Part shown: positions 1,255-14,004 of the stretch, in pieces
Numbering within the stretch: the stretch's first letter is position 1
How the letters are laid out: every line of letters begins with the position of its first letter
Origin: a virus
Lineage: Duplodnaviria; Heunggongvirae; Uroviricota; Caudoviricetes
Virus record (IMG/VR): IMGVR_UViG_3300032330_001609
Coordinates: 197,975 to 214,776 of that record
Strand: one strand, 5' to 3'
DNA length: 16,802 nt
Position numbers and translations under genes: made by a program
Notes under the pieces: generated by a model
What the model was told of the DNA's origin: nothing
The model's input: only the letters and a program-made list of their open reading frames with translations
Database searches by the model: none

Positions 1255-1287
1255 AAAATAACCCCATCCTAAACGGTGGGGTTTTTT
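1253..1287. terminator. Bidirectional intrinsic terminator
   Basis: A-tract, ACCCCATC-ctaaac-GGTGGGGT stem (one G-U pair), then T-tract, between convergent genes. Confidence 0.75.
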
Positions 1288-3041
1288 GTTCCATAACCTA
1301 TTACGGATTCAATATTTTCTTTTTGTCTTTTTCCTCCGACAAATGTTCCATTAACTTTTTCACCATTGTCAATAACATCATCAACTTCATCAGTGTAGTT
1401 TCCCTTGGCATTTTTTGTTACTTTAACACCATTTTTAATAACCTTATTAATCATTTTGGAACCATTATAATCATCTTGGTAATTATTTTTATACATCCAT
1501 TCTAATGTTGATTTAATATCACCATCCTTGTTAGGTGTTTTTATTTCCTTAACACCATTTTTAACAACATCATCAACTTCTTCTTGAATCCGATAATTGA
1601 AAATACCGGTCTTTTTGTCAACACATCCGGATGGTCTAATTTCCTTAACACCATTCTCAATGACATTTTCACATTGACCATCAAACCCAATAGAAGTGAA
1701 TGTTCCGTTTTCCACTTTTAGTGTTTTTTTAATACCATTCTCAATAACATCATCAATCATTTTTGGGTAACTAGTTGAGTTATTTTCTTTCATCCATTCA
1801 GCGGTTGACGCAATATCACCATTACCGGGTGTCTTTGTTTCTTTAACACCATCTCTAATGACAAGATGTGATTCTAAAATAAGTTCTCTACCACTATTAT
1901 CTAAAATCAGAAGTGCATTCTTTTTTTGTTTTGTTTCTTTTATGCCATTTTCAAGAATATCATCTATGGTACCGGAAAGATGTTCTTCAAATTGTTTTGT
2001 TTCTCTCACATTATTTTTAATATGGTTTGTTTCTTTAATACCATTATCCAAAACTCTATCAATTAGATATTGGTCGGTGATAAAATATTCAGCATTGTTA
2101 CCACAATAATCACTAACTTTTGTTTCTTTAACACCATTTTGTAATGTGTCTTCCATTTTATTATCAAAAAATTTCATTACATCAACGTGGTTGGTTTCCT
2201 TCACACCATTTTCAATTGCGTCATCAACTATCCATTTCTTTGTAACTGTTCTTTCTTGTGTGTGTTTTACACCACTATCAATGATGTCTTCAATTTCACC
2301 TCTTTTCAATAAAGATTTATAATCGGTTTCTTTTATCCCCTTTTCAATTGTATCATCAACATTATTGCATTGGTGCCAACCAATATCGGTGTGTCTCACC
2401 CCATTTTGAATGGTGTTTTCAACATTGGTTATCATTGAAAATGGGTTATCTTGAGTGCGTTTCACACCATTTTGAATAGTATCTTCAACCGACCAAACCG
2501 TTTTCATATGTGCCCCTTTAGTTTTTTTAACACCCTTGTCAATTATTTCTTCAACTTGCCAATCAGTATATTGTGTCATTGGGGAAATATCTCTCACCCC
2601 ATTTTCAATAATATTTTCCGCAGTTAATTTACTACGCAGTTCGGAGGTAATAGTTGCCTTCACACCCTTGTCAATTACTTCTTCACATAAAAATTGGGAT
2701 ATATTAAAATCATCTGATTTTATTTCTTTCACCCCATTTTCAAGAACTTCTACCAAATTATATGATGGTGTTTGAGCGGGAGATGGTATATTTTTAGAAC
2801 CATTGATAATATTATCTTCCACCCATTTGGTGATGTATGATTGATTCTCCACAACATCCAACGAAGTGAACTCAAATATTTGTTTGAAGAAGTTGTAGTT
2901 ATACCACAGGGTTTTTTGTTCGGTTAACTCAATAACCCATTTTTTTGATTCCGTGAATATTAACCAAGTTGAACCATTGTGGGTATAGGTATCCACACCT
3001 TTTATCCAATTGTTAATTAGTGAATGTATTATTTTTTCCAT
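1269..3041 (-). CDS. 590-aa repeat protein: ~73-aa paralog-family N-domain plus ~20 units of (V/I)(E/D)xxIxNG(V/I)KxT with unique linkers
   Basis: Long ORF with a consensus promoter directly upstream. The motif recurs, e.g. VEDTIQNGVKRT, VENTIQNGVRHT, VDDAIENGVKET. Confidence 0.88.
   Translation of the reverse strand: MEKIIHSLINNWIKGVDTYTHNGSTWLIFTESKKWVIELTEQKTLWYNYNFFKQIFEFTSLDVVENQSYITKWVEDNIINGSKNIPSPAQTPSYNLVEVLENGVKEIKSDDFNISQFLCEEVIDKGVKATITSELRSKLTAENIIENGVRDISPMTQYTDWQVEEIIDKGVKKTKGAHMKTVWSVEDTIQNGVKRTQDNPFSMITNVENTIQNGVRHTDIGWHQCNNVDDTIEKGIKETDYKSLLKRGEIEDIIDSGVKHTQERTVTKKWIVDDAIENGVKETNHVDVMKFFDNKMEDTLQNGVKETKVSDYCGNNAEYFITDQYLIDRVLDNGIKETNHIKNNVRETKQFEEHLSGTIDDILENGIKETKQKKNALLILDNSGRELILESHLVIRDGVKETKTPGNGDIASTAEWMKENNSTSYPKMIDDVIENGIKKTLKVENGTFTSIGFDGQCENVIENGVKEIRPSGCVDKKTGIFNYRIQEEVDDVVKNGVKEIKTPNKDGDIKSTLEWMYKNNYQDDYNGSKMINKVIKNGVKVTKNAKGNYTDEVDDVIDNGEKVNGTFVGGKRQKENIESVIGYGTKNPTV
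1272..2822 (-). repeat. Degenerate coding tandem repeat, ~20 units; period about 66 nt in the N-proximal half, longer and irregular distally
   Basis: Linkers after units 1-10 are 10,11,10,10,10,10,9,10,10,12 aa. Later linkers are mostly 16-30 aa. Confidence 0.85.
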
Positions 3042-3120: not shown

Positions 3121-3531
3121 ATGGTAAAAACAAAAACAATGTCCTTTCTCAAATACAATAAATTTGAGTTCGGAAAACAAGTCGTGAGTCAATTCGTGGT
3201 CTTCGAGTGTAAGTGGCTCTTCTCAATTATCTTTTTCTATTTCCACAAATCAACGGAACCTCAGGACAGATTTCACACCCACGCATTTAATGCTTGGTCG
3301 GTCAAATTATTCGGAGAGTATGACGAACATATTTTGGATGATGAGACTACCGGTGAATATCACATCGTCAGACGTGAAAAAACTTTAATGTATTTTCCCC
3401 GGGATTCCTATCATCGAATTGCGAACAGCAACGGGTGTATGACAATTCTATTTTCCGGACCGTGGAAAAAATATTGGAAGGAATTTGTCAATGGTGAAAT
3501 AATTCACTATACTTGGGGTAGAGAAAAATAA
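3121..3531 (+). CDS. Cupin-fold protein
   Basis: FHTHAF...GEYDE...YHRI metal-binding pattern typical of cupins. Confidence 0.65.
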   Translation: MVKTKTMSFLKYNKFEFGKQVVSQFVVFECKWLFSIIFFYFHKSTEPQDRFHTHAFNAWSVKLFGEYDEHILDDETTGEYHIVRREKTLMYFPRDSYHRIANSNGCMTILFSGPWKKYWKEFVNGEIIHYTWGREK

Positions 3532-3532
3532 A

Positions 3533-3829
3533 ATGGATAAGGTAAAAATATTACGAAGTGTTGTTAAAAAGATTTATCCTGACGCATCATTTGTTGTAAG
3601 AGTTAATAAATTAGGAAAGTTTCAAATAATTCTCAAAGGAGTTAAAACAACTTATTATGAGGTTGAAACTTTTGAGAGAAAGTTGGTTCTAAAAAATGAT
3701 AAGGTAATTGTGATGGATAATTTCCAACCAAACCTTGAGGCGTTCTATCCATTCTTCACTAAAGAAAATTGTGACATAAAATACATTCTGTGGAATGGTA
3801 AGGTCAAAAATTGGTACGGTAATAATTAA
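3533..3829 (+). CDS. Hypothetical protein, 98 aa
   Basis: ORF begins 1 nt after the upstream stop. Confidence 0.7.
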   Translation: MDKVKILRSVVKKIYPDASFVVRVNKLGKFQIILKGVKTTYYEVETFERKLVLKNDKVIVMDNFQPNLEAFYPFFTKENCDIKYILWNGKVKNWYGNN

Positions 3830-3855: not shown

Positions 3856-4140
3856 ATGGAATACGAGATTGGAACAATAATGCAATTTGCACATAATTGG
3901 GAAACCCGAGGTTGGAAATATTGTGACGGTAGAACATTAATGATTAGTGAATATCCTGAACTTTATGAAGTTATCGGATGTGGGTTTGGTGGTGACTTTA
4001 GAAAAACATTTAACCTACCGGATTTAAGACCAAGAGATACAGATGGGAATTTATTAAGAACTCCTTACGCGGAAAAAATAAATGGGGTACACTATGTACC
4101 ATATCAAATTTGTACCGTTGGAAGAACACCCTTAAAATAA
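3856..4140 (+). CDS. Stand-alone phage tail collar domain protein
   Basis: IGTIMQFA...GWKYCDGRTL.ISEYPELYEVIG..FGGD...FNLPDLR is the tail collar (Collar) signature. Confidence 0.85.
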   Translation: MEYEIGTIMQFAHNWETRGWKYCDGRTLMISEYPELYEVIGCGFGGDFRKTFNLPDLRPRDTDGNLLRTPYAEKINGVHYVPYQICTVGRTPLK

Positions 4141-4643
4141 TGAGATTTCTTTTTTTTATTATATTACTACTTTCATCATTGGGATATGGTCAAACATATC
4201 CCAATATTATTATTGGGGATTCTCAAACTCCATATATTGATTTACATTCACAAAAAATAAAAAAATGTGTTGGACTATGGGAAGGCGGAATAAATGTACC
4301 AGTGTTAATAAAAATGGTTCAAAAACACCCAATTTCACCTGAAGTTAAGAACCTTGTGATATGTATTGGAACTAATGACCGTTATAATGATTTGGGTGTT
4401 GAACGACTTATTAATTTAATTTGTGTTAAGTTTCCCAACTCTAAATTATATGTGGTTCAGGGTTCTTGGGGTTGGGGTGGTATAAAAAAAATAACCTACC
4501 CTAAAGTAAAAAAATACTATCAAAAATTTGAGCGACTTGGGGTTACCGTGATTAAGACACCTATTGGAAAACGAGAACCTCATCAGGATTGTCCGGTCTA
4601 TAAACAGATTGGTAAAGAAATTGATTCGTTGTTATATTTATAG
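4140..4643 (+). CDS. Secreted SGNH/GDSL-like hydrolase
   Basis: Start moved to ATG 4140 (TAATG overlap). Signal peptide MRFLFFIILLLSSLGYG, block I IIGDS, block III IGTND, C-terminal His (EPH). Confidence 0.7.
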   Translation: MRFLFFIILLLSSLGYGQTYPNIIIGDSQTPYIDLHSQKIKKCVGLWEGGINVPVLIKMVQKHPISPEVKNLVICIGTNDRYNDLGVERLINLICVKFPNSKLYVVQGSWGWGGIKKITYPKVKKYYQKFERLGVTVIKTPIGKREPHQDCPVYKQIGKEIDSLLYL

Positions 4644-11266: not shown

Positions 11267-11457
11267 TGTATATCATAGTTTGGAGAAATAGTCACCGGGA
11301 ACCATTTATTGATGTGGATTCTCGTCAATTTATGGAATCGTATTATAGTTACGAGGAGGCTAAGGTGGCGGCCGAAGAAATTGTTAAAAACGAAAACGAG
11401 GGTGAACCAAGTCCTTGGTATTTTGATTATAAAATTTATGAAGAGTGTAATGAATAA
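11266..11457 (+). CDS. Small hypothetical protein (Y.SYEEAK motif)
   Basis: TAATG overlap upstream; ATGAATAA overlap downstream. Confidence 0.7.
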   Translation: MYIIVWRNSHREPFIDVDSRQFMESYYSYEEAKVAAEEIVKNENEGEPSPWYFDYKIYEECNE

Positions 11458-11468
11458 ATTAGATAAAC
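11450..11468 (+). repeat. 19-bp direct repeat ATGAATAAATTAGATAAAC, copy 1 (copy 2 at 12766-12784)
   Basis: Exact match at the start codons of the array gene and thyA. Confidence 0.8.
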
Positions 11469-12058
11469 TTTGTATTAAATGGTTGAATGATAATTACAAC
11501 CATATGGAACCATTTATTATAAAAACATACCCTGATTATATTTTTCATATGAAAGATGGGAAATGTATTTTACAATACAATAAAAAAAATGGGTATGTTT
11601 ATGTGAGTTATAGAGAAATTTGGAAGTTTTTTGAATCCTATTTTAGTATGGATAACCAACAAATTAAGGACATCACAAAGATATGGGTGGAGGAACACTA
11701 CAAAATGGGGGTGACAACAACTCTAATTGAATTTCGTCAGATTGTAAATTTGGTGGAGGAACACTACAAAATGGGGGTAACAACAACTTCCTTCAGCACA
11801 ATTAATCTTGCTATACCGGTGGAGGAACACTACAAAATGGGGGTAACAACAACCAGAAGCATCAGCCGAACCATTATAGACCGGGTGGAGGAACACTACA
11901 AAATGGGGGTAACAACAACTGTTGTAAAAGATACCTTTGATGGTATTAAGATAGAGGAACAATACAAAGAAATTCAAACAATCAACAACCAATTAGAATT
12001 TTATTCTGAAAGGGATGTTGAAGAGTTATACAAACAAAACAAATGGATAAAAAATTAG
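11450..12058 (+). CDS. Paralog-family protein with in-frame repeat-spacer array (VEEHYKMGVTTT x4 plus variable decapeptides), 202 aa
   Basis: Start moved to ATG 11450, overlapping the upstream stop. The frame stays open through the whole array. Confidence 0.8.
   Translation: MNKLDKLCIKWLNDNYNHMEPFIIKTYPDYIFHMKDGKCILQYNKKNGYVYVSYREIWKFFESYFSMDNQQIKDITKIWVEEHYKMGVTTTLIEFRQIVNLVEEHYKMGVTTTSFSTINLAIPVEEHYKMGVTTTRSISRTIIDRVEEHYKMGVTTTVVKDTFDGIKIEEQYKEIQTINNQLEFYSERDVEELYKQNKWIKN
11686..11985. CRISPR. Cas-less CRISPR-like mini-array embedded in a CDS: 36-nt repeats, 30-nt spacers
   Basis: GGTGGAGGAACACTACAAAATGGGGGTAACAACAAC at 11686 (one A>G), 11752, 11818 and 11884. A degenerate copy at 11950 matches 16 of its first 19 nt. 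The four spacers are unrelated and exactly 30 nt. The structure is certain; CRISPR function is inferred. Confidence 0.65.
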
Positions 12059-12219
12059 ATATTAGTTGGAAATCTTATTCAAAAACCTTACCTTTGTCCA
12101 AAGAAATCTATTTGGATGTGTTTGGTGAGCCAAAGACCCACGCAGAATGGGCGGATAGTTTCAATAAAATAGGAAGAATAAACAGGTTAATAATAAAACA
12201 CGCAGATGACATACGATGA
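12043..12219 (+). CDS. Small hypothetical protein, 58 aa
   Basis: MDKKLDISWKSYSKTLPLSKEIYLDVFGEPKTHAEWADSFNKIGRINRLIIKHADDIR* fills the apparent gap and overlaps both neighbours. Confidence 0.6.
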   Translation: MDKKLDISWKSYSKTLPLSKEIYLDVFGEPKTHAEWADSFNKIGRINRLIIKHADDIR

Positions 12220-12436
12220 TTTAGAAAAATGGGAAAGTGTCCAATATAGAATGGATGAAGAAGGATTTGATTATTGTTTTGAAAGTTATAGTCGTTGGGA
12301 TGAAATCAAAGATGAAGAGTTCCACCGATTAAGATTGGGTTTCTTACAATCTATGGAAGACCTTAGAAATTATATTGATAAAAAAGTTGATGAAGGTAGA
12401 GGTCAAGAATTAGATGGTGAATTGGATGATGAGTAA
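12206..12436 (+). CDS. Acidic hypothetical protein
   Basis: Operon-packed ORF, 76 aa. Confidence 0.72.
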   Translation: MTYDDLEKWESVQYRMDEEGFDYCFESYSRWDEIKDEEFHRLRLGFLQSMEDLRNYIDKKVDEGRGQELDGELDDE

Positions 12437-12599: not shown

Positions 12600-12773
12600 A
12601 TGGGACTTATAAATAATCTTTATGCTGTGTATGAAAAATCACCGGCACACGGGAGCAAAGAACATAATGTAATCTTGGCTCCTTTCAAAACTAAAGAAGA
12701 AGCAGAACAAAGCAGAATTAAATATGGTTATAACACCGATAATTATTACGTAGATATTTTGAAATATGAATAA
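12600..12773 (+). CDS. Small hypothetical protein, 57 aa (FKTKEEAE motif)
   Basis: MGLINNLYAVYEK...YVDILKYE*; ATGAATAA overlap with thyA. Confidence 0.62.
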   Translation: MGLINNLYAVYEKSPAHGSKEHNVILAPFKTKEEAEQSRIKYGYNTDNYYVDILKYE

Positions 12774-12784
12774 ATTAGATAAAC
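12766..12784 (+). repeat. 19-bp direct repeat, copy 2
   Basis: Identical to 11450-11468. Confidence 0.8.
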
Positions 12785-14004
12785 AATACACAGACTTGCT
12801 CCAAGACATCTTAGATAACGGAGTAACAAAGCAAGACAGAACAGGTACAGGAACAATTTCAGTATTCGGAAGACAAATACGTCACGATATGAAAGATGGC
12901 TTTCCATTACTCACAACTAAGAAGATGCCATTTAAAACAATCGTAACAGAACTACTTTGGTTCTTACGAGGTGACACCAACATTAAGTTTTTGGTTGATA
13001 ATAATTGTCACATTTGGGATGGTGATGCTTATAAGAGATATGAGAATAGTTATGCCGCTTGGGTTGGAAATTCTTCGTGGTCAAATAATGCTGAGCCTTG
13101 GGATATGGAAAACTTTATTCGACTAATAAAAGAAGACGAGAGGTTTTGTTCCATATTTGGTGAGTTAGGTCCAATTTACGGTAAGCAATGGAGAAGTTGG
13201 GATGGTTATCATAATGCAATTGGTGAAGATAATAGATTCATAAAAAATATGAATGGTATAGACCAAATCCAAAATCTAATCAACGACCTTAAAACAAATC
13301 CAGACTCAAGACGATTAATGGTTAATGCTTGGAATGTTGGAGAGCTGGATTCTATGGTCTTGCCACCTTGCCATTATGGATTTCAAGTTTATACAAGAGA
13401 GTTGAGTGATGAGGAAAGATTATCTTGGATGAAACAAAATAAAAGTAATGTTGTTTTACCAATGAGAGACCCTAGTGTTGAGTTTTCTATGGATGAGTTT
13501 TTTAGACCTTATGGTGTACCTAAACGAGCAATCTCTTTAATGTGGAATCAAAGAAGTGTTGATACATTCTTAGGTTTACCATTCAACATCGCATCTTATG
13601 GATTATTATTAGAAATAATTGCAAAAGAAGTTAATATGGTTCCTGAAGAGTTGATTGGAAATTTAGGTGATGTTCATTTATACTCAAACCATATTGAACA
13701 AGCAAAAGAACAGATTGGAAGAGAATATACTCACCAAGAAAGAACAGAATTGTTAAAACAAGCGATGGGTAAAGAAAGATATGATAAAGCAGTTGATGAA
13801 TTGATGCCGTTCGGTGGTGGGTTAAGTAGTGAATATGAATGGTATAAAATACCTCATCATTCAAGAGAACCTTATAAGTTACCAAGATTGAAATTCTCAC
13901 CTTGCCCAATAACCGGAATTGATATTGAGTATCAATCAATAGCTCAATTCCAAATTGAGAATTACGAATCACATCCAACAATTAAAGCACCTTTAAGCAA
14001 TTAA
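12766..14004 (+). CDS. thyA: Thymidylate synthase with three large inserts
   Basis: DRTGTGT, ELLWFL, LGPIYGKQWR, SRR, LPPCH (catalytic Cys), QRSVD, PFNIASY (Asn, dUMP-specific), GDVHLY, HPTIKAPLS. Confidence 0.97.
   Translation: MNKLDKQYTDLLQDILDNGVTKQDRTGTGTISVFGRQIRHDMKDGFPLLTTKKMPFKTIVTELLWFLRGDTNIKFLVDNNCHIWDGDAYKRYENSYAAWVGNSSWSNNAEPWDMENFIRLIKEDERFCSIFGELGPIYGKQWRSWDGYHNAIGEDNRFIKNMNGIDQIQNLINDLKTNPDSRRLMVNAWNVGELDSMVLPPCHYGFQVYTRELSDEERLSWMKQNKSNVVLPMRDPSVEFSMDEFFRPYGVPKRAISLMWNQRSVDTFLGLPFNIASYGLLLEIIAKEVNMVPEELIGNLGDVHLYSNHIEQAKEQIGREYTHQERTELLKQAMGKERYDKAVDELMPFGGGLSSEYEWYKIPHHSREPYKLPRLKFSPCPITGIDIEYQSIAQFQIENYESHPTIKAPLSN

Follow-up and report, generated by a model that had tools for sequence, protein, structure and literature searches.

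An In-Frame CRISPR-like Repeat-Spacer Array without Cas Genes at the 3′ End of a Conserved Phage Gene

Organization of the Locus

The DNA analyzed here (hereafter the window) is a stretch of 16,802 nt that forms the last 16.8 kb of a 214,776-base IMG/VR record of a Caudoviricetes virus (IMGVR_UViG_3300032330_001609), which comes from an uncultured jumbo phage and is 73% complete. Its closest cultured relatives are Flavobacterium myophages, which match through thyA only. The thymidylate synthase gene of the window (12766-14004, + strand) encodes 412 aa against a Pfam model of 266 positions, which implies large insertions. For comparison, three complete relatives (308-322 kb, 100% complete by CheckV) were used together with 61 DNA loci from viral and metagenome contigs that carry the same gene and repeat. 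Every array in these loci was parsed, which yielded 115 distinct spacers.

The array is comprised of four repeats of 36 nt, which show a single mismatch among them, four unrelated spacers of exactly 30 nt, and a decayed fifth repeat, at a period of exactly 66 nt (Table 1). In the best register, the repeat reads GGTGGAGGAACACTACAAAATGGGGGTAACAACAAC, and repeat 1 alone deviates from it (G for A at position 28). The degenerate fifth repeat matches at 22 of 36 bases by our own count. Four near-identical 36-mers cannot have arisen by chance, and the arrangement agrees with the generic description of a CRISPR array, namely, direct repeats of 23-55 nt that are nearly identical and alternate with unique, similarly sized spacers. 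A first-pass annotation, made from the sequence letters and a list of open reading frames, had already described this layout, as well as its in-frame position within an open reading frame that belongs to a packed operon. Both descriptions are borne out by the reanalysis, in which the ORF shares sequence with the stop of the preceding ORF and with the start of the following one. The G+C content of the repeat is 47%, in comparison with 32% for the genome, and several of its codons are rare in this genome (GTG, 10% of Val codons; GGG, 11% of Gly; TAC, 22% of Tyr; GAG, 26% of Glu). The unusual composition noted earlier (47% G+C, with GAG, TAC, and GGG) is thus real, the genomic shares of these three codons being 11-26%. 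A search of the whole 214,776-base record for additional copies of the repeat, which had also been proposed in that annotation, found none outside the array.

Table 1. Coordinates of the array-bearing gene, its parts, and the paralogous gene in the window.
Feature	Position	Strand	Remarks
Paralogous gene, 590 aa, same design	1269-3041	-	N-domain ending ITKWVED, then ~20 units of VE--I-NGVK-T plus variable blocks
ORF, 202 aa: N-domain, in-frame array, C-terminal tail	11450-12058	+	271 homologs with 22-aa length steps
Conserved N-domain coding sequence, in place of a CRISPR leader	11450-11685	+	AlphaFold pLDDT 88; G+C 28%
Repeat 1	11686-11721	+	Also encodes the last 12 N-domain residues (VEEHYKMGVTTT): end of helix 3 and strand (predicted)
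Spacer 1 (LIEFRQIVNL)	11722-11751	+	Private to this phage; no exact IMG/VR match
Repeat 2	11752-11787	+	From sequence comparison
Spacer 2 (SFSTINLAIP)	11788-11817	+	Private; no exact IMG/VR match
Repeat 3	11818-11853	+	From sequence comparison
Spacer 3 (RSISRTIIDR)	11854-11883	+	18/30 identical to a spacer of L025 (RSISRSLIYK)
Repeat 4	11884-11919	+	From sequence comparison
Spacer 4 (VVKDTFDGIK)	11920-11949	+	Old far-end spacer; same DNA in L023 and L024
Degenerate terminal repeat (IEEQYKEIQTIN)	11950-11985	+	From the parsed array
C-terminal tail and stop	11986-12058	+	Overlaps the next ORF, which starts at 12043

The domain encoded by the first 79 codons together with repeat 1 is predicted by AlphaFold to fold with a pLDDT of 88, in the order helix, four strands, two helices, and strand, and repeat 1 would contribute the end of helix 3 and the last strand. 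A single-sequence AlphaFold model of the whole 202-aa protein reaches a pLDDT of only 36. No structural relatives of the N-domain were detected in the PDB (Foldseek E at least 0.13; best VIA-align Z 4.2), and its model had no usable match in the ESM Atlas. Pfam contains no family for it, and PHROGs gave a weak match to phrog_23906 only. The N-domain family is large: its profile retrieved 1,497 clusters at E ≤ 0.001 among 1.8 billion representatives, mostly proteins of 100-130 aa. The full-length homologs (n = 271) have lengths of 134, 156, 178, 200, 222, and 244 aa, i.e., they differ in 22-aa steps. Across clades, the repeat is conserved better than any other part of the gene (78-89% nucleotide identity versus 56-68% elsewhere).

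A non-coding leader is absent, as the 236 nt upstream of the array are AT-rich (28% G+C) and encode the conserved domain, which is predicted to be folded. To our knowledge, a "leader" that is itself coding sequence is unlike any described CRISPR leader, which counts against a CRISPR-type reading. An A8 tract (11581-11590) and a T6 tract (11626-11631) are located ~100 and ~60 nt 5′ of repeat 1, within conserved codons (NKKNG and KFFE, respectively). According to PMC8092290, poly(A)/poly(T) tracts occur within 100 bp of the leader-repeat junctions of type II-C and VI-B arrays. A scan for sigma-70 promoters and terminators revealed no signal tied to the repeats. With regard to conserved neighbors as possible machinery, synteny was found within the window's clade only and involves only small genes without an assigned role.

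Some variants of the N-domain gene were also observed. An N-terminal tag, MK-h-h-ITE, occurs in L050-L069, which are distant relatives, and in array-less N-domain paralogs of G000, G002, and G003 (e.g., G000:175228-175569), and the window's copy begins just past the point where this tag would stand. Tandem N-domain paralogs with small arrays of their own are present in L058 (1338-1438 and 1734-1901) and in G003 (3307-3636 beside 4087-4575). The array at G003:3307-3636 has one spacer, followed by a degenerate repeat after the stop codon.

Turnover and Polarity of Spacers among Relatives

The arrays of the relatives have 2-8 repeats and up to 7 spacers. Pairwise identity among the 115 spacers is bimodal: the bulk of the pairs agree at 7-8 of 30 positions, homologous ones at 27-29 of 30, and almost none lie between, which indicates that the units do not come from duplication followed by divergence. 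The arrays are also polarized. At the gene-proximal position, 4% of the spacers are common to another array, and the proportion then becomes 18%, 39%, and 36% further out, and the number of mismatches to the first repeat rises along the array, with values of 0, 2.4, 5.6, 7, and 8.6. In the parsed arrays, the terminal repeat is always half-degenerate and holds the stop codon.

Strains whose flanks are 96-100% identical differ in gene-proximal units only. For example, the array of L023 consists of the L024 array and two further proximal units (flanks 99.8% and 96.3% identical); likewise, one extra unit in L019 and in L037 distinguishes them from L020 and L039, respectively. In the pairs L032/L033 and L010/L059 (flanks 99.3-100% identical), the far-end spacers are common and the proximal ones differ. 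New units are thus found at one end of the array, and old shared spacers together with the degenerate repeat at the other. Relatives that carry the same spacers with no turnover, which the first-pass annotation had regarded as the mark of an ordinary protein repeat, were looked for, and turnover was found instead. Some arrays, such as P0002 and P0003, have the newest and the oldest cassette in common and not the middle ones. Recombination between arrays therefore rearranges units as well, and some of the turnover could be mimicked by it.

Three other origins of such a pattern were rejected. The spacer turnover and the recurrence of the array in many independent assemblies speak against both an iteron or replication origin and an assembly artifact. 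A diversity-generating retroelement was rejected as well, as no RVT_1 domain was detected in G000-G004 (the present record and complete relatives) and whole blocks are replaced rather than changed in an adenine-directed manner.

Sources of the Spacers

When the 115 spacers were compared with G000-G003 and ~1.8 Mb of phage loci, a source was found for one, which belongs to the relative L048 and not to the window. This spacer (spacer 0, the newest of its array) reproduces in full a site conserved among other jumbo phages in a gene encoding 2244 aa, with 28/30 identical positions in G003, 26/30 in G002, 25/30 in G000, and 29/30 in seven IMG/VR contigs. In the 2244-aa gene, the site is translated in a different frame. 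The similarity ends at the 5′ boundary of the spacer, and beyond its 3′ boundary the agreement extends by two bases (GG) only. In G000, the 2244-aa ORF lies at 65205-71939, has no Pfam or PHROG match, and contains the protospacer at 70428-70457. A degenerate pattern of the 30-nt site was found in at least 119 IMG/VR contigs.

Exact 26-28-nt cores of window spacers 1-3 had no match in IMG/VR, nor had those of two G+C-rich spacers from L042 and L048. No source for the private spacers of the window was found in cultured phages or in the four related genomes, so that a purely recombinational origin may apply to them. Comparison of the window array with the cultured-phage collection gave chance-level matches only, and a six-frame peptide search with 195 cassettes gave nothing above chance. 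None of ~19 spacers matched its own phage genome, as would be expected if self-derived spacers were counter-selected, although these numbers are small. The spacers located past a stop or frameshift in L038 (1868-2101) and L042 (1868-1933) have a G+C content of 47-57%, versus ~32% for these phages, and this composition suggests that they may come from a source other than the phage lineage itself.

Translation of the Array

A stop codon in frame 0 occurs in only 3 of the 94 distinct spacers from the window's clade, in comparison with 32-53 in each of the other five frames and with 49 ± 4.6 expected from shuffles. None of the 33 newest spacers has such a stop, and the spacer length is divisible by three in 92 of the 94. 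For the four spacers of the window by themselves, the open frame is not significant (P ~0.05, shuffles); the family-wide evidence is overwhelming. Between homologous spacers, the ratio of synonymous to non-synonymous codon differences is 25:44 in frame 0, versus 5:61 and 5:58 in the other frames. In addition, private, newest cassettes have a hydropathy of +0.23, similar to that of random translation, whereas the value for old, hydrophilic cassettes common to at least three proteins is -0.61 (P = 4e-5). At the level of sequence comparison, these results demonstrate that selection holds the frame open in the window's clade and that the old cassettes are under protein-level constraint.

A distant clade, whose N-domain is 41-52% identical to that of the window and which includes TARA and GOS contigs, behaves differently. 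Its spacers are 29 nt (nine spacers), 30 nt (nine), and also 31 and 32 nt long, and frame-0 stops occur in 7 of 21 spacers, equal to the other frames. The repeats of this clade are perfect even though the ORF terminates within spacer 1 or shortly beyond it. The existence of the array is therefore independent of translation. Perfect repeats also carry on beyond a stop or frameshift in L038, L042, and L048.

The window contains a paralogous gene of the same design (Table 1). Its first ten units hold the 22-aa period, and its DNA repeats have decayed to ~63% identity while the protein motif is retained, so that the repeat region is a genuine protein feature under selection. The family of this paralog (P0122), with at least 849 members, forms a mosaic in which shared cassettes appear in different orders. 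A profile comparison of the two N-domain types gave an E-value of 0.031 and a probability of 1.6%.

Cas Genes, Host Repeats, and RNA Features

Cas1, Cas2, a TnpB/Cas12f-type domain, and a reverse transcriptase were not detected in G000-G004, and none of the 32 largest ORFs of the record (at least 450 aa) had a strong match to a Cas effector in PADLOC or Pfam. The locus has no cas13b and no large gene near the array. The earlier statement that no cas gene is recognizable therefore holds for the window, for the full 214,776-base record, and for the three complete relatives.

The repeat was found in none of 185,579 prokaryotic species genomes, either as an exact-core pattern or as a degenerate pattern. 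CRISPR arrays are often missing from metagenome-assembled genomes, and the host is possibly unsampled. The comparison with a repeat collection suggested by the first-pass annotation came out negative: an Rfam search (E up to 10, positions 11300-12300) matched no CRISPR repeat family and no other credible RNA. A string search for published Cas13b repeat sequences gave no match. Folding of the repeat revealed no significant structure (z-scores of -1.6 and -0.06 relative to shuffles), and no anti-repeat (tracrRNA-like) sequence was detected above chance in four genomes.

Proposed Mechanism

We favor, with a probability of roughly 0.55, the explanation that the locus is a cas-less CRISPR-type array fused to the 3′ end of a conserved phage gene, which a host integrase probably extends in trans and which is translated in this phage. 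At the DNA level, the CRISPR-like reading of the first-pass annotation stands, given the perfect repeats, the unrelated spacers of fixed length, the polar turnover, the degenerate end, and the one foreign spacer in a relative. The protein alternative, which the annotation had set against it, is also partly true, because the frame is actively kept open and the old spacers are constrained as protein. The result is a hybrid, i.e., a translated CRISPR-type array.

Briefly, repeat 1 doubles as the last 12 codons of the domain predicted to be folded, and the gene and its first repeat may act as leader and repeat. Whole 66-nt units would be gained and lost at the gene-proximal end, each new unit consisting of a duplicated 36-nt repeat and ~30 nt of unrelated DNA. 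These insertions would be made by a CRISPR-type integrase. Since the phages encode none, the likeliest candidate is probably the type II-C-like Cas1-Cas2 of a Bacteroidota host, acting in trans. A cas1-less array of Flavobacterium columnare is filled in this way (PMC8092290), which makes a host enzyme in trans the best candidate by analogy. As 36 + 30 nt equals 22 codons, each insertion would keep the reading frame. In the window's clade, units with stops or off-size spacers would then be removed by selection, and the translation product would alternate constant 12-residue blocks with 10-residue cassettes.

A more specific form of this proposal, that spacer capture of the CRISPR type, probably by host Cas1-Cas2, writes random 30-nt foreign DNA into a phage gene and that selection then filters the resulting 10-residue cassettes, is tentative, with the odds slightly against it. 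If true, it would represent an undescribed route to new protein sequence, of which the decayed 590-aa paralog may be the long-term product.

Alternative Explanations

Homologous recombination between co-infecting phages at the constant blocks, whose identity would be maintained by gene conversion, might also have shuffled 22-residue units into a mosaic repeat protein with no CRISPR enzyme involved, in which case the geometry would be a coincidence. This would account for the demonstrated open frame and protein-level constraint, and it has a precedent in the P0122 family, the at least 849 relatives of which form a cassette mosaic with differing orders. Arrays with common first and last cassettes and differing middles, as well as the failure to find either cas genes or a host repeat, also fit. 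However, it leaves the source of the unrelated 30-nt blocks unexplained, since adjacent units are never similar, and one spacer reproduces 30 nt of an unrelated gene, with exact boundaries and in a different frame. In the distant clade, the spacers measure 29-32 nt and include stops, and the repeats are still perfect. Moreover, strict polarity toward one end, together with a terminal repeat that is half degenerate, is characteristic of integration at a fixed junction. We therefore regard this explanation as unlikely.

Another possibility is a working viral mini-CRISPR array whose guides, processed from either strand, serve a host Cas effector against competing phages or host genes. Translation would then be a side effect, maintained solely to bring ribosomes to the tail and to the downstream gene with which the ORF overlaps. 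Known mini-arrays carry repeats identical to host ones (PMC11656645), whereas the repeat of the window was found in none of the species genomes searched. It has no stem, and it was accompanied by no detectable anti-repeat or tracrRNA-like sequence. Translational coupling alone is also insufficient to explain the amino acid constraint on old cassettes and the motif retained by the paralog. On the other hand, virus-borne cas-less arrays directed against related viruses are known (PMC11656645 and PMC7162821), and spacer 0 of L048 corresponds to a highly conserved site in a large gene of related jumbo phages. No self-matching spacer was seen among ~19, as expected of active guides; untranslated arrays of the distant clade persist with perfect repeats; the repeat is more conserved than the rest of the gene (78-89% versus 56-68% nucleotide identity); and the ORF overlaps the start of the next gene. 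Taken together, such a role appears rather improbable.

Integration of DNA by Cas1-Cas2 into non-CRISPR sites is an established phenomenon, and the 3′ end of the gene could mimic the leader-repeat junction of the host, either accidentally or as a decoy for adaptation, so that the units would be functionless, neutral scars. The short untranslated arrays of the distant clade and the resemblance of new cassettes to random translation are compatible with this idea. In an inert array, self-derived spacers should dominate, yet none of ~19 matches its own genome; the design persists over ~1,500 protein clusters and two deep clades, and old cassettes are under purifying selection. This alternative is accordingly quite doubtful.

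A multi-core precursor peptide of the cyanobactin type, in which recognition sequences that follow a conserved leader flank hypervariable excised cores, is formally similar in having a conserved N-terminal part and DNA-identical constant blocks around hypervariable 10-residue segments, but it is very improbable, as no maturation enzyme is conserved in the neighborhood across clades (synteny is confined to one), the arrays of distant relatives are untranslated, and new cassettes are random-like in composition.

Implications

CRISPR arrays are usually regarded as a memory store that does not code for protein. The present array, which bears the full DNA-level signature of spacer acquisition, does code for protein and is kept so by selection, as judged from codon patterns. 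If a CRISPR integrase is responsible, the adaptation machinery acts on phage genomes and makes new peptides from arbitrary DNA, which bears on the origins of arrays, on cross-talk between phages and host adaptation, and on the de novo birth of protein sequence. There is also a consequence for annotation, in that software for CRISPR detection would conceal a genuine gene, and gene prediction would conceal a genuine array. Because the family is large (~1,500 N-domain clusters and hundreds of array-bearing genes), these ideas are testable in existing lake and ocean metagenomes and in Flavobacterium models.

Comparison with Known Systems

The P0122 family, a set of mosaic repeat proteins represented in the window, is similar in design. 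It shares a constant block of ~12 residues (VE-x-hydrophobic-x-x-G-V-x-x-T) with variable blocks of ~10 residues, a 22-residue period that follows a small N-terminal domain, and the occurrence of cassettes in different combinations among relatives. Its DNA repeats are, however, at 63% identity, and no fresh units were found in the genomes examined, whereas the window array has DNA-identical repeats and unit turnover between near-identical strains.

Type VI-B arrays are defined by a 36-nt repeat with complementary GUUG/CAAC ends, a poly-U loop, and a stem, and by a 30-nt spacer (Smargon et al., bioRxiv 10.1101/092577). The window array has these sizes. Its repeat was rejected as a type VI-B repeat: the sense strand reads GGUG...CAAC with a poly-A center and the antisense strand GUUG...CACC with U4, and no stable fold is predicted. 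Of the paired 5′-GUUG...CAAC-3′ ends, only one is thus present per strand, and poly-U occurs in the antisense strand only. The type II and VI-B geometry proposed in the first-pass annotation is therefore right in its 36/30 sizes and fails with regard to the VI-B ends and stem, and none of the sampled bacterial genomes contains the repeat.

[quoted passage not shown] In F. columnare, according to the same paper (Hoikkala et al. 2021), the co-resident II-C Cas1-Cas2 supplies spacers in trans to a VI-B array that lacks cas1, although the leaders and repeats of the two loci differ. The window locus differs from these arrays in that cas13b and cas9 are not nearby and the leader is coding sequence.

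Virus-borne mini-CRISPR arrays contain 1-2 spacers, their repeats are the same as in the CRISPR arrays of the host, and they are linked to inter-virus conflicts (PMC11656645). The present arrays are likewise short, cas-less, and viral; their spacers vary among close relatives, and at least one corresponds to related viruses. In contrast to the mini-arrays as portrayed there, they have up to 7 spacers, are translated, and have no matching repeat in 185,579 species genomes. Neither PMC11656645 nor PMC7162821, in the parts available, describes an array that lies inside a gene and is translated with it. In none of the papers searched, to the extent of their accessible text, was strain turnover of the CRISPR type without cas genes found in combination with preserved protein readability.

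Another viral setting is that of the cas-less or incomplete arrays in huge phages (Al-Shayeb et al. 2020, PMC7162821). As reported in that study, they occur without Cas1, Cas2, and Cas4, and often without an effector; they are compact, with a median of six repeats, and some of their spacers match core genes of other phages. The present arrays agree with that account in being compact, in belonging to jumbo phages without Cas1 and Cas2, and in having one spacer that corresponds to a conserved gene of related phages. They differ in that no cas gene at all was detected in the complete relatives. The huge-phage arrays, as the same study presents them, are intergenic and serve as guide-RNA loci, whereas here repeat 1 is the end of a predicted protein domain, a gene takes the place of the leader, and the array is in frame and, as judged from sequence, under protein-level selection.
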